A model generated the notes under the pieces. It was not told where the DNA came from, did not search any database, and was given only the letters and a program-made list of their open reading frames with translations. A DNA stretch of 49,013 bases from a virus, in the UHGV virus genome UHGV-0069399. One strand, 5' to 3'. The translations under genes were made by a program, and so were the position numbers. Position 1 is the stretch's first letter. Every line of letters starts with the position of its first letter. Below are positions 1-43,162 of this stretch, piece by piece.

Positions 1-49
1 TTTTAGTTACCACCTATACTTTCAGTCTGACATATGGCTGGAGGTTTTT

Positions 50-721
50 ATGTGTGGACGTTTTTCACAGTCAATGACGCGTGAAGACTATCTAGCCCTT
101 CTCGCTGAAGAAGTCGAACGAGACATTCCATATGGCCCTGAACCGATCGGACGTTTCAACGTTGCGCCCGGAACCAAAGTTCTGCTACTGAGCGAACGTG
201 ATGAGAAACTCCATCTTGATCCAGTTATCTGGGGATACGCCCCCGGGTGGTGGGATAAACCACCACTAATTAATGCACGCTCTGAAACTGCGGCCACCAG
301 CAGAATGTTTAAACCACTCTGGCAGTATGGTCGTGCAATTTGCTTTGCTGATGGATGGTATGAATGGAAAAAGGAAGGTGACAAAAAGCAGCCCTACTTC
401 ATTCATCGAGCCGATGGCCAGCCGATATTCATGGCGGCGATCGGCAGAACACCATTCGAACGTGGAGATGAAGCAGAAGGATTCCTGATAGTGACGGCTG
501 CTGCAGACAAAGGGCTGGTAGATATTCACGACAGGCGGCCGCTGGTTCTGTCACCAGAAGCCGCTCGCGAATGGATGAGGCAGGACATTGGAGGGAAAGA
601 AGCTACGGTAATTGCGGCTGACGGTTCCGTGCCGGCTGATAAATTTTCATGGCATGCTGTAATGCGTGCCGTCGGGAATGTTAAGAATCAAGGACCAGAG
701 TTAATAGAAACTATGCGTTGA
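50..721 (+). CDS. yedK: SOS-response-associated peptidase (SRAP, YedK-like abasic-site processing protein)
   Basis: 223-aa ORF starting MCGRF, with Cys2 directly after the initiator Met (the SRAP nucleophile position); size and WGYAPGWW / PLINARSE motifs fit the family; GC typical of the host. Confidence 0.8.
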   Translation: MCGRFSQSMTREDYLALLAEEVERDIPYGPEPIGRFNVAPGTKVLLLSERDEKLHLDPVIWGYAPGWWDKPPLINARSETAATSRMFKPLWQYGRAICFADGWYEWKKEGDKKQPYFIHRADGQPIFMAAIGRTPFERGDEAEGFLIVTAAADKGLVDIHDRRPLVLSPEAAREWMRQDIGGKEATVIAADGSVPADKFSWHAVMRAVGNVKNQGPELIETMR

Positions 722-999
722 CGTACGAAGCGACAGAGAAAAACATCTGCTTTGAGCGAAAAGTGGCAGTTGAAGACAATCATGAACGATCTATGACTCG
801 ATATTTACTTAATTCACTGTTATTCAAAGGGTTAAGTAAAAAAATATTATCTGTCACCTCAGTGCAATGCAATCTAAGGTTTCAAAGAACCCCCCTTTGA
901 GTACACCGTAAGTTTTAAAATGTGAGGTAAGTTGATTTTACATATTTTCTAATGCATTATCATACGTCCCTTAAAATAAATCATATTACTGAGAAAAAA

Positions 1000-2022
1000 A
1001 TGTCCAACATTAATTTATTCGATGATGTAGTGCCTTTAGAAAAACAACATCCAATATATACAATGATGAAAGAAGAACGCTACAAACCGGAGAGAGATGT
1101 AATTAATCAATGGGCAAAAGGATTTCAAGACCGAGACAATAAATTTGCTAAAGAATTTCAAACAAGTTTTGAACCTTGCCTATGGGAATTATATCTTTTT
1201 GCCTATCTGAAAGAATTAGGCTTAAGGAGCGACTTTTCATACGACGCTCCTGACTTCGTCGTCAATGATCCAGATTTTTGCATTGAGGCAACTATTGCAC
1301 TTCCAGCACAAGGAGACCTTGGGGCGCATGGTTTCAGTAAGGAAGATATGCCGAGAGATTTTAATAAATTTAATTCTGAAGCATCTATTCGACTTAGTAA
1401 TAGCTTTATATCAAAGGTTAAAAAATTAAGATCGAGATATTCTCTACTTCCTCAATGTAAAGAAAAACCTTTTGTAATCGCCATAGCTTCATTCGACAGA
1501 CCTTTTGCACACTTTGCAGCAGCTAGGCCCATACTTGCAACATTATATGGCCTATACCATGATGAAGAAGCAACCATTGAATCAGGGTCAAAGAGTATAA
1601 TTTCTTATAACGTCGATGCTGCAGTAAAAAAAGAAAATGTTAATATAGACATGGGGTTATTCTGCACACCTGAATATTCGGATGTAAGTGCTGTGATTTA
1701 TAGTAGTTTAGCTACTTGGGGAAAAGTAAGAGCCCTTGCGGACAACCCTTCTGCTCTAACGATTTATACATCATTTACTCCAAAGGAAAACTCATTATTT
1801 CCTGAAGTTCATCAAGCCTTAAAAAGTGATTATGTAGAACATCTAGCGGATGGGTTATATATTTTACACAACCCATTTGCCAAGCATCCATTGCCTAAAG
1901 AGACACTAAGTCATCCAAGAATAGCGCAAGGTTATATTGAGCCAGATGGATACGTTAATTTTATAGCGCCAGATGATTTTCTTTTATTGCGTTTTTTACA
2001 ATCGTTAAATTTGAAAGAGTAG
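1000..2022 (+). CDS. hypothetical protein, AT-rich islet gene A (~340 aa)
   Basis: Long ORF in markedly AT-rich DNA. ATG at 1000 (MSNINLFDD) preferred over the ORF-track start at 952, which has no RBS. No family recognised by eye. Confidence 0.6.
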   Translation: MSNINLFDDVVPLEKQHPIYTMMKEERYKPERDVINQWAKGFQDRDNKFAKEFQTSFEPCLWELYLFAYLKELGLRSDFSYDAPDFVVNDPDFCIEATIALPAQGDLGAHGFSKEDMPRDFNKFNSEASIRLSNSFISKVKKLRSRYSLLPQCKEKPFVIAIASFDRPFAHFAAARPILATLYGLYHDEEATIESGSKSIISYNVDAAVKKENVNIDMGLFCTPEYSDVSAVIYSSLATWGKVRALADNPSALTIYTSFTPKENSLFPEVHQALKSDYVEHLADGLYILHNPFAKHPLPKETLSHPRIAQGYIEPDGYVNFIAPDDFLLLRFLQSLNLKE

Positions 2023-2256
2023 TAATTATGGTCACATCTAATTACTTTACATAGATACCCACTAGAAAGGGGACTTTTCTTAAAACTCAGCCGTCAAAGA
2101 TTTAGAGTGGTTATCTACTGGTATGCTTCCGAATCTGCCAGTGCGGCTGAGTGGATTTCTAGTACCCTCTAGAAGATTTAGTTGATTAAAACAGGTCATG
2201 TATCATCTTCAGAGTCAACATATCGCCAACTGTCTATCATTCCATTGAGGAAAAGT

Positions 2257-3030
2257 ATGTCATCAGAAAATTTTGTCACCTTCTGGCTCGCTAGAGCCGA
2301 TCTTCCATACTTTCTTGAACCTCATGAATTTTACGTTTCGGAGGCCAAGCGTAGACTTCTATCGCAGTTTGGCGATTTAGAACAAGAAGCAGAAAGGAGG
2401 GAACAACAGTATTTGGAAGCTACCTCAAAATATTTCGATCCTGATAACGATGATCCAATGGCTGCCTACGAGCAAGCCTACCACGTGGGAATTAATTATG
2501 TATGGTCGCTTCTGGAGATGCAAAATACCGTGTTGTTGGCATTAACGGCAGGAATGTACCACCAGTTTGATAAAAAACTAAGAGAACACACCATCAAAGA
2601 ACTAAGTAACTGGTGCAAAAGAGAATTAATTACTCCCATGATCTGGAATATAACTTTCCATCAGCTTATTGATTTACTCGAATGGATTGGCCTCAAAATC
2701 AATGGAACCGGATACGGAGAGAGGATCAAAGCCTGTAACTTGGTAGTAAACGTATACAAGCATGGGGACGGGCCTGCGCATCAAACACTATCATTCAATC
2801 ATCCTGAGTACTATCAACACCCTACCGATGTTCGAGGTACGCAGAACATACATGACCATGATGATTTACATGTATCAGAAGAGCAATTTGTAGAGTTTGC
2901 TGACGCAATAACTGAATTCTGGAAAGCAGTTCCAGAGAATTGCTATTACTCAGATCTCAAAGAAGAACCCAAATGGTTGAGTAAAGTCGTAACAAAATTC
3001 GATAAAAAACAGAAGGGAAATAGGGACTAA
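2257..3030 (+). CDS. hypothetical protein, AT-rich islet gene B (~257 aa)
   Basis: ORF in AT-rich DNA; ATG at 2257 (MSSENFVTF) is preceded by GAGGAAAA at RBS spacing. No family recognised. Confidence 0.6.
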   Translation: MSSENFVTFWLARADLPYFLEPHEFYVSEAKRRLLSQFGDLEQEAERREQQYLEATSKYFDPDNDDPMAAYEQAYHVGINYVWSLLEMQNTVLLALTAGMYHQFDKKLREHTIKELSNWCKRELITPMIWNITFHQLIDLLEWIGLKINGTGYGERIKACNLVVNVYKHGDGPAHQTLSFNHPEYYQHPTDVRGTQNIHDHDDLHVSEEQFVEFADAITEFWKAVPENCYYSDLKEEPKWLSKVVTKFDKKQKGNRD

Positions 3031-3138
3031 TTACCCATCTCAAAACATCAAGTTTGCAGTGCCCTGCTCCCCGTTTATTAGTATGGAAGTTAACAATGTC
3101 TGCTTCTGACACATAACAGCCCTTAAGATGGTAACTCG

Positions 3139-3188
3139 CCGTCATGGGGTGTCGGGGGTCGGAGGTTCAAATCCTCTCGTGCCGACCA
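3139..3188 (+). other. 3' ~50 nt of a tRNA-Pro-like gene (anticodon arm through T-arm, acceptor 3' strand and ACCA); 5' half absent - integration-junction (att core) remnant
   Basis: GGTCGGAGGTTCAAATCCTCTCGTGCCGACCA is a canonical tRNA T-arm plus acceptor 3' strand plus discriminator A plus CCA, resembling enterobacterial tRNA-Pro. The complementary 5' acceptor strand (CGGCACG) is not present upstream, so this is not an intact gene. Confidence 0.6.
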
Positions 3189-3201
3189 AAAATCCTCGAA
3201 G

Positions 3202-3229
3202 AACCAGCCTGTTACGGCTGGTTTTTTTA
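3202..3229 (+). terminator. rho-independent terminator directly after the tRNA fragment
   Basis: AACCAGCC-tgttac-GGCTGGTT hairpin followed by a run of 7 T. Confidence 0.6.
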
Positions 3230-3318
3230 TGCCTGTTTTCTGAACGGGGAAGCAACGGGGAATAATTGGGGAAAAACCCCGACACAAAACATCGACTTTA
3301 CCGTAAAGTTTCAGCTAT

Positions 3319-3708
3319 TCACATCACTGGGCAGTCATCAAACTCCGCGTTCCTGGCATCATTAATGATGTACGTGATAACACCAAATATTGCGTGTGAA
3401 GAATTATAGCCATCACCGTCTTCTGGCAGCACTTCTCTTCTCCCGTTCTCCAGATTTATCAGGTGGGGCTGAGGGTGAGTTCGGTATCGCTTGATCCTGA
3501 ATTCCCCATCTATCGCGCATATCAGCAGCGAGCCATCACAGGCTGAAAGCGACGCGTCCACAACAAGTAGTGCCCCCTGGATTATCCCTTCCCTGAAATG
3601 TGAACACGATGCCCGCATGAAATAAGTCGCTGCGGGCTGGCTGATTAGCTGTTGATCGAGGGAAATCCTTGTTTCAACGTAATCACTGGCAGGTGAAGGG
3701 AAGCCCAT
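3319..3708 (-). CDS. UmuD'-like protein (LexA/S24-fold, begins at the cleavage-site Gly; catalytic Ser apparently replaced)
   Basis: Translation from ATG 3708 (MGFPSPASDYVE...ATYF...LLVVD...IDGEFRIKR) aligns along its length with E. coli UmuD from Gly25 (GFPSPAADYVEQ...), as recalled from memory. GGAGG RBS 8 nt upstream of this ATG; ATG lies 2 nt after the stop of the upstream small ORF. The ORF-track start at 3807 would overlap that ORF by ~97 nt. Confidence 0.7.
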   Translation of the reverse strand: MGFPSPASDYVETRISLDQQLISQPAATYFMRASCSHFREGIIQGALLVVDASLSACDGSLLICAIDGEFRIKRYRTHPQPHLINLENGRREVLPEDGDGYNSSHAIFGVITYIINDARNAEFDDCPVM

Positions 3709-3710
3709 GG

Positions 3711-3953
3711 CTATAGTCCTCCGTTTGGATTGAAAAGCTGAAAGGTACGGTTCTCCCCTTCCTGCGTTGATACATCGCGGAATGATGTCACATACCACTC
3801 GATCCATTCGTTAGCCTGCTTCATCGTCCAGTTCCAGTTAACCTTGCTCAGTTCCTGGACAAACCGCTGTGTGGTGACGGTCTTCCGGCCATTAGGTTCT
3901 TGCTGTATCGAAGCATGCCAGGCCATTTCAATATCGCTGCGTCGTGGCATCAA
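3711..3953 (-). CDS. hypothetical small protein (80 aa), first gene of the LexA-boxed operon; candidate SOS-induced regulator/antirepressor
   Basis: GAGGGG RBS ~7 nt upstream of ATG 3953; LexA box 40 nt upstream; tightly coupled to the downstream UmuD'-like gene. No family recognised. Confidence 0.5.
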   Translation of the reverse strand: MMPRRSDIEMAWHASIQQEPNGRKTVTTQRFVQELSKVNWNWTMKQANEWIEWYVTSFRDVSTQEGENRTFQLFNPNGGL

Positions 3954-3992
3954 TTAACCCCTCTTGAATACCGGATAAAAACACAGTATAAA

Positions 3993-4012
3993 TACTGTAT
4001 ATCCATCCAGTA
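3993..4012. promoter_or_regulatory. LexA box (SOS operator) in the divergent promoter region
   Basis: TACTGTATATCCATCCAGTA matches the enterobacterial consensus TACTG-N10-CAGTA. It lies between the DinI-like gene (+) and the small-ORF/UmuD'-like operon (-). A second, imperfect box (CGG instead of CAG half-site) lies at 3973-3992. Confidence 0.7.
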
Positions 4013-4028
4013 AAGATGACTACAAGAA

Positions 4029-4271
4029 ATGTTCGTGGAACTCGTTTATGACAAAAGGAATTTTGATGGGCTGCCTGGTGCAAAAGATATCATTCTGGGC
4101 GAATTGACCAAGAGGGTTCACCGGATCTTCCCCGATGCTGATGTTCGGGTTAAACCGATGATGACACTGCCGGCGATCAACACTGACGCCAGCAAGCATG
4201 AGAAGGAACAGATAAGCCGTACTGTTCAGGAAATGTTTGAAGAAGCTGATATGTGGCTGGTTTCAGATTAA
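4029..4271 (+). CDS. dinI: DinI-like DNA-damage-inducible protein
   Basis: 80 aa; aligns with E. coli DinI, including the acidic C-terminal EEADMWLVSD motif; consensus LexA box 16 bp upstream. Confidence 0.8.
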   Translation: MFVELVYDKRNFDGLPGAKDIILGELTKRVHRIFPDADVRVKPMMTLPAINTDASKHEKEQISRTVQEMFEEADMWLVSD

Positions 4272-4399
4272 ACACCTTGAACCGTCATATTGCTTAAGTA
4301 CAATCCGCCGTGACTGGCAATCATTCAATACTCGCACTATCGAACGTTCGCCAGTCGGCCGCAATCATGCTCTTGCATACGGCGTGGTTGCGGCAACCG

Positions 4400-5956
4400 T
4401 CAATTTTGCTGGCTACCTTTCAGCGTCTCAATCACATTCTTCAGGGAATTGAGTTCAGACATCTGTTCCTTCATCGCTCTGCCCATATAAACCATAGCGC
4501 ATGCCATATCGGCCATAATGACATTATTATCAAGGGCAAGGGTATCGTCTTTGAGACCAACCTCAATCTGATGGTCAACATATTCGTTACCGGACTCATC
4601 CACACCAACAACGTCCTCAAAAACAGGTCCACCAGGCACTATCTTTACGTACTGCGGATCAACTTTAGTCAGATCCTGGGCAATAAGGCCAAAACGCTGT
4701 GTATCCGACCCCTTATACTTAAACATGGTCGGTAACCACTGCATGACACGGTCGAAACTGTCTTTCCCGTCCCGATATTGGATATCTTCTTTTAGATCGC
4801 GGTCTGATGTCGCATTCTTGGCGAACACGTACGATCCCTGCCAGTTTGACCCGGATTCGTTCCATACGTCAGTAGTGATATCACCAGACTGAGGATTGAA
4901 TCTGAACATCCTGTGATATCTGGCATCGCCCATAAAATGTAAGACGCCATGTGGCCAGCCATTGGCACCATTAGAAATGAGTCCCAGTGACAGACGAGTA
5001 CTCCACCCACCCGATGCAGAAGAACCACCAGAAACGATTGGAGCCCAGCCACCATCATTTCCACCAACAATGGCGGACCAGTAAGGGGTGGTCCATGGAC
5101 CATCAACATCCCCCCAGCCACCCGATCCGCACTGTCCCCAGAAACCACGTGGTGATTGTATAACCCCACCATAACCAGAAAGAAAGTTGAAACGGTATGT
5201 GTTCGCTCCTGCTCCAAAACTATTCGCGATTAGAGCAATGGCATCCAGATAATTACCCGCACCTCGTATCCCGCCAAACTGATAGAACGAATTCCCCATC
5301 CACCCCTGCAGCTGGTTCATCATCCAGCCCAGTTCACCATCAACGTTATTCGACGTCAGTAAAATATCCTTCTTGACGCCAGCAGTGCTTTTGACGCCTG
5401 TACCCGACCCACCCGCCACCGAATTGACGCCACGGGTGCCAAGAACACTACCGAACGTAACATCCTGAGAGTTTCCCAAAGTGAGATTATCGCGGGCCGC
5501 ATTTTTATCAGGCAGATCGGCCAGGGCCTGGCTTTTCAACAAAGCATTATTGATCTGATCAATAATGCTTTTCCATGATGGTCCTGTAAACTCCGTATTG
5601 TCAGGAAGCCTGACAGTAATATTGCCGTTCGCAGAGAATAAAAGTTGCCAGTTCTGTTTGTCGTAATTCAGCCCCCGCAGCGCCTCCGTGTTCTGCACCA
5701 CCATTGCGGCAGTAACCATATTCAGCGCCACACGAGGAACAGCTGACCAGGCCGCGCCAGATTGGGTTGGCCCGGTGTAATTGCTGACCAGCGTCAACGC
5801 TGTACCACTTTCCACGGACTTAACCGGAAGCGTATAGGGAACACCACCGACCGTAACAACAATAAAATCTCCGGCCGCCACCTCAGTGGTAAACGCGGTC
5901 CCGCTGCCAGCGACCGCAGCCGAGTTATTCATCAGGGTTAATGTTCCTGCTGACAT
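4400..5956 (-). CDS. side tail fibre protein with C-terminal intramolecular-chaperone (peptidase S74-like) domain
   Basis: 518 aa; Gly/Ser-rich fibre-like central region; C-terminal SDRDLKEDI...FGLIAQDL...DPQYV block typical of autocleaving tail-fibre chaperone domains; position at the distal end of the tail module. Confidence 0.75.
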   Translation of the reverse strand: MSAGTLTLMNNSAAVAGSGTAFTTEVAAGDFIVVTVGGVPYTLPVKSVESGTALTLVSNYTGPTQSGAAWSAVPRVALNMVTAAMVVQNTEALRGLNYDKQNWQLLFSANGNITVRLPDNTEFTGPSWKSIIDQINNALLKSQALADLPDKNAARDNLTLGNSQDVTFGSVLGTRGVNSVAGGSGTGVKSTAGVKKDILLTSNNVDGELGWMMNQLQGWMGNSFYQFGGIRGAGNYLDAIALIANSFGAGANTYRFNFLSGYGGVIQSPRGFWGQCGSGGWGDVDGPWTTPYWSAIVGGNDGGWAPIVSGGSSASGGWSTRLSLGLISNGANGWPHGVLHFMGDARYHRMFRFNPQSGDITTDVWNESGSNWQGSYVFAKNATSDRDLKEDIQYRDGKDSFDRVMQWLPTMFKYKGSDTQRFGLIAQDLTKVDPQYVKIVPGGPVFEDVVGVDESGNEYVDHQIEVGLKDDTLALDNNVIMADMACAMVYMGRAMKEQMSELNSLKNVIETLKGSQQN

Positions 5957-36307: not shown

Positions 36308-36514
36308 TCACCCCCAGACCTTTTGCCGAAAGGTTCTTGGTGTACGCGCCGGATGCTCGCATTCAGGTAATTTTGCGCTAACAGTCCAGGTGATATTGTC
36401 GCGATTCAGGCTGCGTTCTACCGTGGCGCCGCGGCGTCGGTAACAGGCAATAAGTTCGTCGGCCTGCTCGGTTGTGCATTCGTGATGGTGGAACCAGGAA
36501 AATTTCATCGCCAT
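36308..36514 (-). CDS. hypothetical nin-region protein (68 aa)
   Basis: ATG overlaps the upstream stop (TGATG coupling); His/Cys-containing small protein. Confidence 0.5.
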   Translation of the reverse strand: MAMKFSWFHHHECTTEQADELIACYRRRGATVERSLNRDNITWTVSAKLPECEHPARTPRTFRQKVWG

Positions 36515-37116
36515 CACCCCGCAAAACTCATAAGCTGCGCAGCGGCGTTTTCCGCTTCTCGCTGAGTCTTGAATGCCCGGGACAATACCCAGCGCCACAG
36601 AACATCGAGCGCGGCTTTGTAAAGTTGCTGGAACTCGGTTTCGTCCATGTTGGCGAAAGCTATGCTGCGGGGGTGTTTACGAAGAGTTCCGTCAGGTAGT
36701 TGAATTGCGTCGTAGTGGCCGGCCTCGACAATTACCCAGGCACGGTACGCGTCAAAGGATTTACACAGGCTGATCCCATTGGTAACTCGGCGACTGGCTA
36801 CCTGCTCCAGATACTGCTCGGCAGCATCCAGCAGTGCGCCTTCGTTTCCACCAAATGCCGCGAGGAATTTAGCATAACCATTTACGAGCTTACGCTCATT
36901 GCTGGATATCGCCCCTCCAGTAGGTTCCCAGTATTCAAACCCGAGATTCAGGAGCGCAAAAAAACGGCGATGGAATGCGGGATTCCTCACCTGGCGAAAT
37001 TCGGCTACCAGCACGGCACCGAGTTTGATTTTTGATTGCAGAATATCGCTGGTCTCCGGCGTCGCGGGGATCAGGATTCCTGATGACTGCTTGATGAGTT
37101 GTAGTTCGTGCGCCAT
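36514..37116 (-). CDS. nin-region protein (possibly DUF1367-like)
   Basis: 200 aa, coupled into the nin-like operon; family assignment uncertain. Confidence 0.55.
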   Translation of the reverse strand: MAHELQLIKQSSGILIPATPETSDILQSKIKLGAVLVAEFRQVRNPAFHRRFFALLNLGFEYWEPTGGAISSNERKLVNGYAKFLAAFGGNEGALLDAAEQYLEQVASRRVTNGISLCKSFDAYRAWVIVEAGHYDAIQLPDGTLRKHPRSIAFANMDETEFQQLYKAALDVLWRWVLSRAFKTQREAENAAAQLMSFAG

Positions 37117-37198
37117 GGTATTCCCCGTGGCGCATAATTGTCAGGTTACTGGTTGTTCAGGCCAGTGACAGAATTATGATTGGGTACGTAGCATTAAG

Positions 37199-37420
37199 TC
37201 AATTTTTAGAAGTCATCTCCCTTACAACTTCCATGATGGTTTCTTTGGACCAGTACAATTCATCTCTGGATAATTTTCTGTTAGTTACAGAACCGGCCTT
37301 GGCTGAAAGGATGTAGCGTTCATCCGCTGCAAGTCCGAAAGACAAAAGCTCCCGACCTTTCCCATCGGTTATGATCACCCGTAAATTATCAGCAAGATCT
37401 GATTGGGCTATATCTGCCAC
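37199..37420 (-). CDS. hypothetical protein (73 aa)
   Basis: Small ORF downstream of the DinI-like gene, same strand. Confidence 0.45.
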   Translation of the reverse strand: MADIAQSDLADNLRVIITDGKGRELLSFGLAADERYILSAKAGSVTNRKLSRDELYWSKETIMEVVREMTSKN

Positions 37421-37529
37421 TTAATCCCCCTGAGCGACATACAGACGCGATTAAAGAATGTCGGCAGCAGCATCAAAGGGATACACATTTTGGTATTCTG
37501 ATAAATGCGCGCCAGCCTTAAGCGCAATT

Positions 37530-37763
37530 CTAATAAAACCAGTCGTCAGCGCTTTCCCAGGTATCCTGGAGGATTGATTCAATTTTCTTTTTATCGTCCT
37601 TGTCACCGCCAAAAACACTTAACCCATCCGACCCGGCACGGCGGATTGTGAGCCTGCAATTGTCATAGTGATCATTCAGGCGCTTAAGCAATTCTTTCTC
37701 CAGTGCAGGAACCGCGCCTTTAGGAAGTTCTTTCATACGATCAATGGTTAATTCAACTTTCAT
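37530..37763 (-). CDS. dinI: DinI-like protein (second copy)
   Basis: From ATG 37763, MKVELTIDRMKELPKGAVPALEKELLKRL...SDGLSVFGGDKDDKKKIESILQDTWESADDWFY aligns with E. coli DinI; GGAGG RBS; LexA box just upstream. Confidence 0.8.
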   Translation of the reverse strand: MKVELTIDRMKELPKGAVPALEKELLKRLNDHYDNCRLTIRRAGSDGLSVFGGDKDDKKKIESILQDTWESADDWFY

Positions 37764-37781
37764 AATGGCCTCCAATGCATA

Positions 37782-37801
37782 TACTGTGTTTTTATACAGT
37801 A
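37782..37801. promoter_or_regulatory. LexA box upstream of the second DinI-like gene
   Basis: TACTGTGTTTTTATACAGTA is a perfect CTGT-N8-ACAG palindrome matching the SOS-box consensus. Confidence 0.75.
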
Positions 37802-38070: not shown

Positions 38071-38331
38071 TCATTGTTTCTTCTCGTTCTGGGCTGCCAT
38101 ATCCAGATAGCGCGGGTCGGATGCTCTCGGTAATGTCAGACTTTGCTCGCGATAGTAGCGCACACGCTCCATGAAGTATTCGCGGAGATGCTCTGGCTGA
38201 TCACGGGCTTCCTGTTCAGCGATAACCGGCATGTTCAGGCGCTCTTTGTCCGCTACTCCGGATGCTGCAAAGTCAACGTTAACCTTGTCCTGCTCTTCTT
38301 TCGGCTTGGCTGCAATGTTATGGTTGGACAT
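38071..38331 (-). CDS. hypothetical protein (86 aa)
   Basis: ORF with terminator downstream; acidic; no family recognised. Confidence 0.5.
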   Translation of the reverse strand: MSNHNIAAKPKEEQDKVNVDFAASGVADKERLNMPVIAEQEARDQPEHLREYFMERVRYYREQSLTLPRASDPRYLDMAAQNEKKQ

Positions 38332-38421: not shown

Positions 38422-38826
38422 TTACTTTAATTTATATATTAAACAATCCACAATATCCAAACCATTAACCATACTATTTGAAAGTCGAACTTTGCTATTT
38501 TCAATAGAGAATGCTCCTTTCATCATTTTATAAATAAAAGCAGACTCTCCTTTAGCTTCGATTGCTTCAAGTGGTATGGAATGGTATTTATTTGATCTAT
38601 TATCTCTATTGATTTGACTTATAAGGCTATAAACGAATGTAGGCCCTTTCTCCTCAAGATCACTTATTACCAAAATATATTTCCAAGAAAACATTTCCCC
38701 ATAAAAAAACCACATGGCAGCGGATAAAGCTACTCCTTTCTTCTCTAACTCTTTCATTAGAAATTGGCCAGAATTTTCCATAGAGGTCGTCATTGAGTGA
38801 CCTATTACCAGTGACTTCTTACCCAT
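38422..38826 (-). CDS. hypothetical protein (134 aa), downstream partner of the HEPN-like gene; possible degenerate minimal nucleotidyltransferase
   Basis: Very AT-rich; start overlaps the HEPN-like gene's 3' end by ~22 nt; contains a G-E-x11-S-D-L-E stretch loosely resembling the MNT G[SG]-x9-13-DxD motif. Confidence 0.6.
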   Translation of the reverse strand: MGKKSLVIGHSMTTSMENSGQFLMKELEKKGVALSAAMWFFYGEMFSWKYILVISDLEEKGPTFVYSLISQINRDNRSNKYHSIPLEAIEAKGESAFIYKMMKGAFSIENSKVRLSNSMVNGLDIVDCLIYKLK

Positions 38827-39227
38827 TGCAAAACTCCAGATTGATTATTCTCAGCTGCTTCGATGAGCTGCTCCGCCATAGCCCGACTGATAGTAGTTTC
38901 GTAGCGGAGTTGTTCACTCCAATCCTTCATAACAGTCCAAAATATTTCAAACTGCCCATCCTGGGCAGCTAATTGTCTATGTGATAGTTGTAGGCTCGCC
39001 ACCTGCATGAGCTTTGTTAGATCATGAACATGTGAGTCCATGGCTAACTTCTTGTCAGGAAATTGAAATGCCGTCACATTTTTTGCTATACATGCTTTAA
39101 GAGCGCACTCAACTGCGTATCCGCAGAGGTAGTATGCACCATGATATAATCCATTCTGTAACAGACATTTTGCTTCCGTTAACCTTATACCAGTTAAAAC
39201 TTCTAGGTCAGATTTATTCATTTGCAA
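38805..39227 (-). CDS. HEPN-like domain protein (140 aa)
   Basis: GAYYLCGYAVECALKACIAK ... HDLTKL ... RYETT pattern resembles HEPN-superfamily helices; AT-rich; first gene of an overlapping pair. Confidence 0.6.
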   Translation of the reverse strand: MQMNKSDLEVLTGIRLTEAKCLLQNGLYHGAYYLCGYAVECALKACIAKNVTAFQFPDKKLAMDSHVHDLTKLMQVASLQLSHRQLAAQDGQFEIFWTVMKDWSEQLRYETTISRAMAEQLIEAAENNQSGVLQWVRSHW

Positions 39228-39339: not shown

Positions 39340-39792
39340 CTAAATGATGTGAAGGCGCGGCTCCCCGTTTTTCGGCTCAGGCCACTGACGCTGCTTATTC
39401 ACCGCCAACTTTTCTACCATCGCCTGGTTAATCTGCTCGTCACTGATACCGGCACGACGTTGCGCATCCCATAACAGGAATTGCATGTCAGCCCATTCGC
39501 TAAGGTCGCCTGGTTCAGCAGCAGCCTCGAGTGCTTCTTTGGAAAGGTGCTTCAGCGGACCAACTGGACCGACATCGCCGAAAGTAGCCAGTGACCACGC
39601 TGCATGTTCACGGCGTACTTGTTCGCGGGCCATCGACTCCAGAACCCCATTAAACACCTTCACAGCATCAGCCATTGCGTAGCCGAGATTGCCGCCGTCG
39701 CTTTGTGCTGCTGCTTTGCTGAGTATTTCTCTTATCTGGTGCAGGCGATTGAGTGATACAGGACCGTTCGCCGGGTGGTTGTTAGTGGTCAT
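39340..39792 (-). CDS. MazG-like/DUF550-type nucleotide pyrophosphohydrolase (putative)
   Basis: Start chosen at MTTNNHP; HLSKEALEAAAEPGDLSEWADMQFLLWDAQRRAGIS resembles prophage dATP/dGTP pyrophosphohydrolase-like proteins. Moderate confidence. Confidence 0.5.
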   Translation of the reverse strand: MTTNNHPANGPVSLNRLHQIREILSKAAAQSDGGNLGYAMADAVKVFNGVLESMAREQVRREHAAWSLATFGDVGPVGPLKHLSKEALEAAAEPGDLSEWADMQFLLWDAQRRAGISDEQINQAMVEKLAVNKQRQWPEPKNGEPRLHII

Positions 39793-40100
39793 ACTGATGC
39801 TCTCCCGTAAAATGCCAGAACCCGCTTCATCGCCGGACTTGTACGGCATACTGAAGTAACCATGTTTTTTCTCATGTTCGATTTGATCTGCTTGATATTC
39901 AGTTCCCCGCCTAGTTGCAGCGAATAGACCGGGTGATGTGGCTCCCCAGCGCGAATAACTACTGCCCTACGTACCAGGTGAAGCAGCAGGTTGTGTGCTT
40001 TCTTGCAGTCGCATCCCAGCAGGTTCTGAACCTGACGCGGGGTTATGGTCTGGTTAACCCGAAGGAAATCGACAATTGCCCACAGTGATTTGCTTGCCAT
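39789..40100 (-). CDS. hypothetical small protein (103 aa), probably DNA-binding
   Basis: Basic small ORF between the DnaC-like and MazG-like genes, same operon. Confidence 0.45.
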   Translation of the reverse strand: MASKSLWAIVDFLRVNQTITPRQVQNLLGCDCKKAHNLLLHLVRRAVVIRAGEPHHPVYSLQLGGELNIKQIKSNMRKNMVTSVCRTSPAMKRVLAFYGRASV

Positions 40101-42742: not shown

Positions 42743-43162
42743 ATGGAAGACATGAAAAAAGCACCCAACGAAGCGTTTGCCTACCGACTTCAGCTCGTCA
42801 GAGATGAGTTCGGTTGGAACATGTCAGATATAGCCCGGAGAGCGATGGTTACTCCCCAGGCAGTGCAGCAATGGGCCAAAGGAGAGTCAGCTCCAAGAGG
42901 TGAGCGCTTAAAGCGTCTCGCTGCAGCTGCTGGAAAGCCCGAACATTGGTTTTTCATGCCACCAAATACCGAAGGTGAAGATGCTGGGGTGCATGAGCCA
43001 CCGCGGCAACTGGATGAAAAAGAAATCGCACTGCTTACGTTGTTCAATCAAATGCCAGAAGCTGAAAAGCTACGTTTGATAGTGCATGCCAAGGCTACCT
43101 TGAGAGAGCTTGATCTCCTCAAAGATGATGTGTCTAGCATCATTCAAAGTATTCAGAAGTAA
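42743..43162 (+). CDS. prophage repressor, HTH (XRE/RacR-like), without a LexA-type S24 autocleavage domain
   Basis: HTH (WNMSDIARRAMVTPQAVQQWAKGES) in a ~140-aa protein; no peptidase domain; divergent from the cro-like gene. Start uncertain (ORF-track 42698). Confidence 0.75.
   Translation: MEDMKKAPNEAFAYRLQLVRDEFGWNMSDIARRAMVTPQAVQQWAKGESAPRGERLKRLAAAAGKPEHWFFMPPNTEGEDAGVHEPPRQLDEKEIALLTLFNQMPEAEKLRLIVHAKATLRELDLLKDDVSSIIQSIQK

Follow-up and report, generated by a model that had tools for sequence, protein, structure and literature searches.

Within the window, a 49,013-nucleotide stretch of the virus genome UHGV-0069399, we found a divergent module in which a DinI-family gene (4029-4271, plus strand, 80 aa) faces a two-gene operon on the minus strand, with one LexA box between them. 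The operon consists of orf79 (3711-3950, 79 aa from its ATG) and a gene for a UmuD'-like protein of 129 aa, humD (3319-3708), which starts 2 nt past the orf79 stop codon. The DinI-family gene was identified by Pfam DinI (4.1e-21, 75.5 bits) and by phrog_189 ('RecA filament binding protein DinI'), and both this assignment and the divergent arrangement around a LexA operator, as proposed in an earlier sequence-only reading of this DNA, proved correct. On the side away from orf79, the neighbour of humD is an att junction. Positions 3138-3196 of the plus strand hold the 3' part of a tRNA-Pro(GGG) gene, proL, from the anticodon arm to the CCA plus 7 nt, matching E. coli K-12 proL exactly over these columns; a hairpin and a run of T come next, at about 3202-3230. 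The 5' half upstream of this fragment is unrelated to K-12 proL, and ARAGORN returned no complete tRNA for the window. The fragment is the duplicated att core, marking the prophage end beside humD. A direct-repeat search of the window found no second att copy; because the window ends inside the integrase gene, the other att junction would lie outside it. The sole Rfam match in 2900-4500, STnc50, was rejected at 22.5 bits against a threshold of 55.

The predicted LexA operator, TACTGTATATCCATCCAGTA at 3993-4012, would be common to both promoters. When we searched with the 20-mer LexA consensus, allowing up to three mismatches, the window yielded two sites against 0 expected from shuffled sequences; among its 27 CTG-N10-CAG sites, TA flanks together with an A+T-rich centre occur only at 3993-4012 and 37782-37801. 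The consensus box that had been placed between the DinI-like gene and the operon is therefore present far above chance. Of 80 related viral contigs, 76 have a CTG-N10-CAG box in the corresponding position, its arms conserved and its centre variable. For orf79-humD, a consensus scan gave a putative promoter (TTTACT, 18 nt spacer, TATACT; 3985-4014, minus strand) whose -35 hexamer and spacer are occupied by the LexA box. For dinI, reading of the sequence gave a second putative promoter (TTGAAT, 17 nt spacer, TATAAA; 3964-3992, plus strand), and the box begins one base past it; this site is missing from the scan output because the scan rule demands that the -10 hexamer end in T. Reading of the sequence and comparison with relatives also pointed to a degenerate second box, CTGTGTTTTTATCCGG (3971-3986, minus strand), and some relatives (e.g. 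L056-L065) carry an intact CTG-N10-CAG at that position, CTGTGTTTTTATCCAG or CTGTTTTTTTATCCAG. In the Klebsiella-type orf79 operons the box is identical to the umuDC operator, TACTGTATATAAAAACAGTA. With a predicted operator that is present, conserved and overlapping both promoter-like sites, we infer that LexA binds here.

By sequence comparison, the UmuD'-like gene belongs to the HumD family known from phage P1 and encodes no new kind of protein. Its product matches the NCBIfam HumD equivalog model NF051876 at 223.3 bits (cutoff 120) over positions 1-129 of 129, and its full-length identity to P1 HumD is 69.8%. It is also recognised by Pfam Peptidase_S24 (PF00717; 35 bits, cutoff 23.3) and scores 91 against the NCBIfam UmuD model, below the cutoff of 110. 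P1 HumD, described in 1999, is reportedly a LexA-regulated, umuC-less and 'born processed' homologue of UmuD', and is said to complement well only from a high-copy plasmid. In the alignment of the window's HumD with E. coli UmuD, residue 2 of its N-terminus (MGFPSP) falls on Gly25, just past Cys24, so the suggestion that the protein begins at the cleavage-site Gly was borne out, as was that of a strong ribosome-binding site, a GGAGG at 3718-3722 (minus strand) inside the last orf79 codons and 9 nt 5' of the humD ATG. A start at 3708 rather than at 3807 is favoured by the 102 of 120 HumD homologues that begin with MGFPSP and by the codon-position pattern in the overlap region, where 69 unique orf79 genes have 11, 9 and 31 variable sites at codon positions 1, 2 and 3 of the orf79 frame. 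When codons differ between these genes, the change is synonymous 75% of the time if read in the orf79 frame, compared to 8% in the extension frame from the 3807 start; the extension frame is not under selection. A pseudogene reading based on PGAP 'frameshifted' labels was rejected in view of the same codon-position pattern. Among existing annotations we came across HumD mislabelled as 'LexA family transcriptional regulator' or as 'frameshifted S24 peptidase', an error that stems from a start called too far upstream.

HumD lacks both the cleavage site and the N-terminal arm preceding it, beginning with Met-Gly right after the position of the site. Self-processing is therefore moot. The further claim, that the catalytic Ser of UmuD is replaced by His, fared less evenly. 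The G-x-S-M motif of UmuD is indeed degenerate, corresponding to S-C-S-H-F in HumD, but the His substitution itself depends on the alignment: the counterpart of UmuD Ser60 is His by phmmer and the neighbouring Ser of CSH by MAFFT, a placement that hinges on the position of one single-residue gap. Across 119 homologues, the position of this Ser is occupied by Ser in 88, Thr in 29 and another residue in 2, and the catalytic Lys (Lys97 equivalent) is kept in 112 of 114. Such a variable catalytic Ser position, together with the conserved Gly start, fits a protein that would never have needed self-cleavage. An AlphaFold2 model of HumD built on a 26-sequence alignment (pLDDT 52) did not have the quality needed to locate the Ser and Lys. 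As had also been noted, umuC is absent, with no match below E = 1.9 in a tblastn search of the window with phage UmuC.

The only uncharacterised part of the cassette is orf79. Its ATG is preceded by GAGGGG at a distance of 7 nt, and at its junction with humD the two genes are translationally coupled. Related loci retain both this junction and the NPNGG(L) terminus of orf79. The gene belongs to a narrow protein family of Enterobacterales prophages: an exhaustive profile search returned only 154 small proteins, and among them no fused or annotated relatives hinting at function. Its fold is predicted to have a winged-helix topology, and a Foldseek comparison of the model with viral structures matched only its own family (K7P7N3, E = 5e-9). 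At pI 6.56 the protein is close to neutral (net charge about 0; median pI of 6.2 across the family), and conservation peaks in an acidic hairpin, DVSTQEGE. A pI of about 6.6 would be atypical for a DNA-binding winged helix, and the sequence suggests no basic DNA-contact surface. Comparison by hhalign with the LexA N-terminal domain and with P1 Lxr gave no signal, and Pfam matches to 'WVELL' and SAM_PNT were discarded as far below threshold. Homologues of orf79 are mislabelled 'DNA polymerase V' in annotations. Our literature search found no study of a gene pair composed of orf79 and a UmuD'-like gene.

Preceded by a LexA box, the pair recurs in some 100 related prophage loci. Among the 69 viral loci with enough downstream sequence, 65 have orf79 coupled, 1-2 nt apart, to a partner with the GFPSP start, and humD was detected by tblastn in the other four; the pairing holds for about 24 of 33 species-level loci. 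A short form of the partner, about 105 aa, makes up 17 of the 65 partners in the viral contigs and most of those in the species set. These short proteins keep the N-terminal GFPSPAxDYxE arm but have lost some of the core and the segment with the Ser motif, and for that reason they are hard to see as full UmuD' surrogates; their sequences hint that the important element may be the arm and not translesion synthesis. Almost the same orf79 sequence occurs with long partners as with short ones (L011, L032 and L050). Each gene is also found without the other: humD without orf79 in P1 and N15, where no annotated gene lies between the upstream gene and humD, and in E. coli L002, where only 78 nt separate humD from dinI; orf79 without humD in phage HK225. 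DinI-family genes are repeatedly linked to humD.

How the cassette should be read is decided by a LexA box outside it. This second predicted operator, TACTGTGTTTTTATACAGTA at 37782-37801, stands in front of the apparent induction operon of the prophage, whose genes all lie on the minus strand. A second DinI-family gene (37530-37763; Pfam DinI 8.3e-26) comes first, as in the Gifsy-2 layout of a Gifsy-type SOS operon, followed by a 73-aa GTG-start ORF (37199-37420) with 79.1% identity to Gifsy-2 STM1020.1n and the Gifsy-1 copy, a homologue of the GftA-type antirepressor. The third gene, irsA-like by position, encodes a DUF1367 protein (36514-37116; Pfam DUF1367 1.5e-96), and Gifsy-2 has a 603-nt gene at the matching place. 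The Gifsy-2 counterpart of the 73-aa ORF is encoded between dinI and the next gene. Both the position and the GUG start agree with the description by Lemire et al. 2011, according to which the layout of LexA box, dinI, antirepressor gene and next gene encodes an antirepressor in Gifsy. The repressor of the prophage (42743-43162, plus strand) is HTH_3/DicA-like, GtgR-like and 52.6% identical to the Gifsy-1/Gifsy-2 repressor over 99% of its length. As the sequence-only reading had recognised, it has no S24 domain; it is non-cleavable. Judged by these similarities, induction of the prophage appears to run through a standard Gifsy-type LexA-controlled antirepressor at 36.5-37.8 kb. The same reading had put forward the orf79-humD operon for this task, with orf79 and/or HumD as an SOS-induced antirepressor inactivating the non-cleavable repressor. 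While the lack of an S24 domain, the predicted LexA control of the operon and the small size of orf79, as in Gifsy antirepressors, would suit such a function, we now regard it as quite improbable given the 79%-identical GftA homologue in its own LexA-box/dinI/antirepressor/DUF1367 operon. Moreover, orf79 shows no similarity to that homologue (no BLASTP alignment), it lies on the strand opposite dinI with no DUF1367 gene nearby, and the separate occurrences of humD (P1, N15, E. coli L002) and orf79 (HK225) also speak against it. In N15, the LexA-controlled antirepressor AntC is another gene. AntC is mentioned by Lemire et al. 2011.

Other readings give HumD and orf79 an activity of a different kind. 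HumD, in concert with DinI, could modulate the host SOS machinery instead of assisting it, with orf79 as its cofactor, through a HumD heterodimer with host UmuD/UmuD' or through a GFPSPAxDYxE arm that occupies RecA* filaments or S24 active-site clefts, altering the timing of Pol V activity, of LexA or UmuD cleavage, or of a checkpoint. The arm is the most conserved feature in long and short partners alike whereas the catalytic-core segment is dispensable, DinI-family proteins as RecA-filament binders are a recurrent neighbour, and nearly identical orf79 genes occur with either partner form; however, P1 HumD, 70% identical, positively complements UmuD' according to its record note and the title of McLenigan et al. 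1999, and we consider modulation possible but doubtful. The UmuD'-like protein might also titrate UmuD, UmuC or RecA, an alternative that had been offered earlier. Because the partners of about 105 aa keep the arm and have lost the catalytic-core segment, and nearly identical orf79 genes accompany either form, one could also argue, though we think it rather unlikely, that orf79 is obligatorily partnered with UmuD'-like proteins of phages, the two making up a hitherto undescribed SOS effector whose active element is the arm, possibly with the DDCPV tail, and not a protease or Pol V activity. Such a pair might be a decoy plugging RecA* or the S24 active-site clefts of LexA, UmuD and CI-type repressors, of the host or of a rival phage, or it might be a two-piece LexA-like factor. 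In the specific form of this last idea, orf79 and HumD would be the winged-helix and S24-type dimerisation chains of a LexA/CI-like regulator, split exactly at the cleavage-site Gly, associating non-covalently and binding DNA. The predicted topology of orf79, a partner that begins exactly at the Gly of a Cys/Ala-Gly site, and the strict gene order and coupling are consistent with it, but the non-basic orf79 (pI 6.6, family median 6.2) with an acidic hairpin as its most conserved segment, the lack of sequence signal between orf79 and the LexA N-terminal domain, and the frequent occurrence of humD alone make it improbable. Finally, the region could be the decaying, functionless remnant of a frameshifted S24 or LexA-like gene, a view prompted by the PGAP label 'S24 family peptidase, frameshifted' on a homologous E. 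coli stretch and by longer database calls of 148-223 aa. With both frames intact here and in nearly all relatives, a synonymous fraction of 0.75 when read as orf79 against 0.08 when read as the upstream extension, the MGFPSP start in most homologues and the end-to-end match of HumD to a curated equivalog model, we give this very little credence.

We therefore favour the view that the cassette is probably an ordinary accessory unit, inducible by DNA damage, of a Gifsy-like lambdoid prophage, where it occupies the att-proximal 'b region' and is not the induction switch. As an accessory unit, it would have one LexA dimer at 3993-4012 blocking two back-to-back promoters until DNA damage leads RecA* to trigger LexA self-cleavage, upon which both promoters would fire. 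The rightward transcript would supply a DinI-family modulator of RecA filaments, and a single leftward mRNA would give orf79 and then, through translational coupling, HumD, presumably a UmuD' orthologue independent of RecA-mediated processing. On the model of P1 HumD, a HumD dimer together with host UmuC and RecA could carry out Pol V-like translesion synthesis in this host once LexA repression is lifted, which would aid the replication of damaged host and phage DNA. The small, winged-helix-like and non-basic orf79 protein may act with or on HumD.

Compared to known systems, the closest counterpart for humD is that of phage P1, and what looked like a UmuD' born processed and without umuC represents the established HumD family. 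This correction, along with the assignment of prophage induction to a standard Gifsy-type antirepressor located elsewhere, makes up much of the mainly corrective value of the analysis, which also exposes two recurring annotation errors, one in orf79 homologues and one in HumD labels. The two HumD proteins share their length (129-130 aa), the MGFPSP start, 69.8% identity and an EFDDCPV tail, and in both elements umuC is absent and the LexA operator lies in a divergent intergenic region; in the P1 record (AF234172) a LexA site is marked between lxr and humD, and HumD is noted as complementing UmuD'. The divergent neighbour in P1 is lxr (190 aa) rather than dinI, and humD follows the operator directly, without orf79, which has no similarity to Lxr; P1 is a plasmid prophage, whereas the lambdoid prophage here is integrated and has the cassette right beside its att site. 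Coliphage HK140 has the same three genes (026-028: dinI, hypothetical, UmuD-like) in the same orientation, with an overlap-coupled orf-humD junction and the same location between the tail fibre genes and attP/int, but its orf79 homologue is only about 39% identical. Genes 026-028 are annotated as hypothetical and we found no publication on their function. The coupled pair of orf79 and a UmuD'-like gene, with its predicted LexA control, is conserved across Enterobacterales prophages. In the phiKO2 record, Gp22 is DinI-like and Gp23 HumD-like, their adjacency being inferred from gene numbering only. The E. coli umuDC operon (Pol V) shares LexA control, which is predicted here, and HumD aligns with UmuD from Gly25 through the C-terminus at about 43% identity; unlike UmuD, it is without the N-terminal 24 residues and the Cys-Gly site, has an extra C-terminal tail and is not accompanied by umuC. 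With the dinI-antirepressor-irsA operon of Gifsy-1/2/3 the window has in common a prophage dinI under a LexA box, the prophage type and the repressor family, but the cassette dinI is alone on its strand and nothing in the cassette resembles GfoA or GftA. The plasmid operon impCAB encodes the DinI-like ImpC, the UmuD-like ImpA and the UmuC-like ImpB, and thus also links DinI-family and UmuD-family genes under SOS control on a mobile element. There, however, impB encodes a polymerase and impA a UmuD homologue that is full-length and can be cleaved, while the cassette has no polymerase gene, a divergent dinI and the extra orf79. Should orf79 and HumD work as a pair, a further factor would enter the long-standing question of why phages carry UmuD' without a polymerase.

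Three genes are arranged around one intergenic region within 3319-4271. Rightward lies dinI (4029-4271, + strand), whose 80-aa DinI-family product matches Pfam DinI at 4e-21, and leftward lie orf79 (3711-3950, - strand), encoding 79 aa with GAGGGG 7 nt 5' of its ATG, and humD (3319-3708, - strand), encoding the 129-aa UmuD'-like protein HumD. The gap between the orf79 TAG stop and the humD ATG is 2 nt, and the GGAGG of humD (3718-3722, - strand) falls within the final orf79 codons. Between the divergent genes, at 3993-4012, is a match to the LexA 20-mer consensus, TACTGTATATCCATCCAGTA. Scanning the window with this consensus (up to three mismatches) gave two sites, 3993-4012 and 37782-37801, with none expected by chance; CTG-N10-CAG occurs 27 times, and only these two occurrences have TA flanks and an A+T-rich centre. 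The sequence-only reading, which had placed a LexA box between a DinI-like gene and a two-gene operon, is thus borne out for both the operator and the gene opposite the pair. A leftward promoter-like site picked out by a consensus scan (TTTACT-18-TATACT) has its -35 hexamer and spacer taken up by the box, which, as read from the sequence, starts one base past the -10 of a rightward one (TTGAAT-17-TATAAA), so that one LexA dimer could shut both promoters. Beside it, CTGTGTTTTTATCCGG at 3971-3986 (- strand) is one base short of a second LexA box; in some related prophages the equivalent position holds an intact CTG-N10-CAG, giving two tandem operators.

HumD matches the NCBIfam model NF051876, 'HumD family translesion DNA polymerase', over positions 1-129 of 129 with 223 bits (cutoff 120), and scores 91 with the UmuD subfamily model, under its cutoff of 110. 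End-to-end identity is 69.8% to the HumD proteins of phages P1 and P7; homologues including N15 gp26, phiKO2 Gp23 and those of HK639 and HK140 are 62-70% identical. The 1999 source paper by McLenigan et al. reportedly described HumD as sized like processed UmuD' and without a umuC partner. In the P1 GenBank record, a LexA site is annotated 'in the regulatory region of lxr and humD', and HumD is noted to 'functionally complement[s] E. coli UmuD''. Given the family match and the likeness to P1 HumD, the traits that had at first seemed striking are the defining traits of the HumD family, described 25 years ago.

HumD residue 2 (Gly) falls opposite UmuD Gly25, directly past Cys24, both in phmmer alignments to PDB chains and in a MAFFT alignment with E. 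coli UmuD, in agreement with the earlier claim that the gene starts at the cleavage-site Gly. A longer ORF from 3807 was rejected as not real, being an out-of-frame overlap with orf79 in which variation follows the orf79 frame. Across 69 unique orf79 genes, this overlap has 11, 9 and 31 variable sites at orf79-frame codon positions 1, 2 and 3, and 75% of differing codons are synonymous in the orf79 frame versus 8% in the extension frame. With MGFPSP at the start of 102 of 120 database homologues, a start at 3708 and not 3807 is upheld. The false upstream extension accounts for database entries of 148-223 aa named, for example, 'LexA family transcriptional regulator', and is probably also behind the label 'S24 family peptidase, frameshifted' that PGAP uses in E. 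coli. Annotation problems recur across the related loci L001 and L003 (E. coli) and database proteins P0002, P0008, P0010, P0011 and P0041: HumD is given a false start or marked as frameshifted, and orf79 homologues are called 'DNA polymerase V'.

The proposed replacement of the catalytic Ser by His did not prove robust. HumD is one residue shorter than UmuD in the TYF-GI stretch, so the counterpart of Ser60 depends on gap placement: phmmer sets His opposite Ser60, whereas MAFFT with ten sequences places the gap after AS and C-S-H-F on D-S-M-I, with Ser opposite Ser60 and the D-S of P1 HumD on D-S. Among 119 homologues, 88 have S at this Ser position, 29 have T and two another residue, and the residue that follows is H in 110 and Y in eight; Lys is kept at the Lys97 equivalent in 112 of 114. 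Neither Ser nor Thr occupies the Ser position in more distant stand-alone homologues, which come from phages of Hafnia and Aeromonas. The canonical G-x-S-M is degenerate and the nucleophile not strictly constrained, as expected if HumD has nothing to cleave, but a Ser-to-His substitution is not safe to state. The AlphaFold2 model of HumD (pLDDT 52) was too poor to settle active-site geometry.

The first gene of the pair, orf79, belongs to phrog_3893 (labelled unknown function), and searches of Pfam and NCBIfam assigned it no family. Its homologues are often named 'DNA polymerase V' by NCBI and JGI, a name presumably taken from the adjoining gene. An exhaustive profile search, run on 1.84 billion representative proteins, yielded no more than 154 relatives. 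Almost all are small stand-alone proteins of at most about 190 aa; the sole exception is a weak partial match to a 1339-aa protein (E = 3.5e-5). With one genome per species, orf79 is present in 34 loci, all but one from Enterobacteriaceae or Erwiniaceae, and the exceptional 1.6-kb 'Arthrobacter' scaffold looks like contamination. Its AlphaFold2 model is confident (pLDDT 84) and has the topology helix-strand-helix-helix-strand-strand, and Foldseek against viral models returned its own family only. With a pI of 6.6 (family median 6.2) orf79 is not a basic protein, and its invariant stretch F.DVSTQEGE.RTF is acidic; DNA binding is thus not assured, and a protein-binding role is at least as likely.

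In 76 of 80 IMG/VR contigs carrying orf79, a CTG-N10-CAG box with conserved arms and a variable centre lies 35-37 or 59-63 nt upstream. Where downstream sequence sufficed, 65 of 69 contigs have a partner (the gene right after orf79) that begins (M/V)GFPSPA.DY.E and whose start falls in the range from 1 nt ahead of to 2 nt beyond the first base past the orf79 stop, and in the remaining four humD was found by tblastn. Most Citrobacter/Salmonella/Escherichia-type loci among the contigs also have the divergent dinI. In the species set, the box is found in 30 of 33 loci and the partner in about 24 of 33. In Klebsiella-type operons the box has exactly the sequence of the E. coli umuDC operator. Unexpected was the abundance of a short partner of about 105 aa (104-108), which accounts for 17 of 65 in the viral contigs and for most of those in the species set. 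It keeps the N-terminal arm (GFPSPAxDYxE), often with a DDCPV-like tail, lacks the Ser-motif segment and another core stretch, and falls under every family threshold (Pfam, NCBIfam). Near-identical orf79 genes are paired with the long or the short form (locus L011 versus L032 and L050). The short class, found in L032, L050, L071-L090, L091-L093 and many of L098-L129, is annotated 'repressor protein CI', 'repressor protein' or hypothetical.

Directly left of humD lies the 3' part of proL (tRNA-Pro GGG; 3138-3196), identical to E. coli K-12, with a terminator-like hairpin at about 3202-3230 that is a diverged copy of the proL terminator; the tRNA 5' half is absent. The fragment is a duplicated att core and marks where the prophage ends. 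Together with the integrase gene, which overruns the right end of the window, this puts the cassette in the att-proximal accessory region, a position resembling that of morons in other lambdoid phages. The stretch left of the fragment (1-3127) may be a second element at the same tRNA. It carries, just outside the fragment, an SRAP gene (50-721; YedK-like 'SOS response-associated peptidase'), followed by ORFs of 356 and 282 aa (952-2022 and 2182-3030) without a Pfam family. An SRAP gene adjoins humD in the E. coli locus L003 too, and the linkage may not be accidental. Close by on the upstream side of the second LexA box is a DNA polymerase III theta subunit homologue (38071-38331, - strand; Pfam 4e-31); in P1 the theta homologue hot likewise adjoins lxr and humD. 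In the early region, a HEPN-domain gene (38805-39227, - strand) and a 134-aa ORF of no family (38422-38826, - strand), overlapping by 22 nt, may form a toxin-antitoxin or defence pair, and a dATP/dGTP pyrophosphohydrolase-family gene occupies 39340-39849 (- strand; Pfam 5.6e-40).

The sequence-only reading had correctly described the prophage repressor (42743-43162) as lacking an S24 domain, and had proposed orf79-humD as a candidate for an SOS-induced antirepressor. The repressor is HTH_3/DicA-like and, aligned along its full length, shares 52.6% identity with that of Gifsy-1/Gifsy-2. The second LexA box, TACTGTGTTTTTATACAGTA at 37782-37801, stands ahead of three - strand genes. A further DinI gene (37530-37763) comes first; next, at 37199-37420, is a GftA homologue of 73 aa with a GTG start, sharing 79% identity with the Gifsy-2 (STM1020.1n) and Gifsy-1 protein; a DUF1367 gene (36514-37116) is third. 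In Gifsy-2 and Gifsy-1 the counterpart of the 73-aa ORF also sits between dinI and the gene that follows, and 36514-37801 makes up a complete Gifsy-type SOS induction operon. Lemire et al. (2011) showed this operon to be LexA-controlled; the small antirepressor that it encodes from a GUG start, GftA or GfoA, is both required for Gifsy induction and enough to cause it. The two DinI-family genes (4029-4271 and 37530-37763) have no mutual BLASTP similarity, yet both are strong Pfam DinI matches; orf79 has no similarity to the window's own GftA homologue. Since the operon at 36514-37801 already covers the need for an SOS-induced antirepressor, the 3.3-4.3 kb cassette is superfluous for explaining induction, and we now regard an antirepressor role for orf79-humD as improbable.

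Rather, it seems fairly probable that LexA cleavage would derepress DinI in one direction and orf79-HumD in the other. By homology to P1 HumD, HumD would serve as a UmuD' that does not have to be processed through RecA and could work with host UmuC and RecA in translesion synthesis. DinI would tune RecA filaments, and orf79 would act with or on HumD. The main rival, to which we give a minor but real chance, is that HumD uses its conserved arm to modulate or titrate SOS proteins of the host instead of aiding them, and the short partner form lends this weight. A two-piece LexA-like regulator is unlikely, to much the same degree as the antirepressor, and a decaying remnant is the least credible of all.

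HumD itself, LexA-controlled prophage dinI genes and Gifsy-type antirepression are already established; we found no prior study of the conserved link between orf79 and UmuD'-like proteins. The same cassette is already present in sequenced phages, phage HK140 having an identical layout (tail fibre, dinI, orf, humD, attP, int). Its parts are separable: Erwinia, Pantoea and Cronobacter phages have the orf79-partner pair without dinI, always between tail genes and integrase; the E. coli locus L002 has dinI divergent from humD, with orf79 absent; HK225 has an orf79-like gene divergent from dinI, with humD absent; and P1 and N15 carry humD alone.
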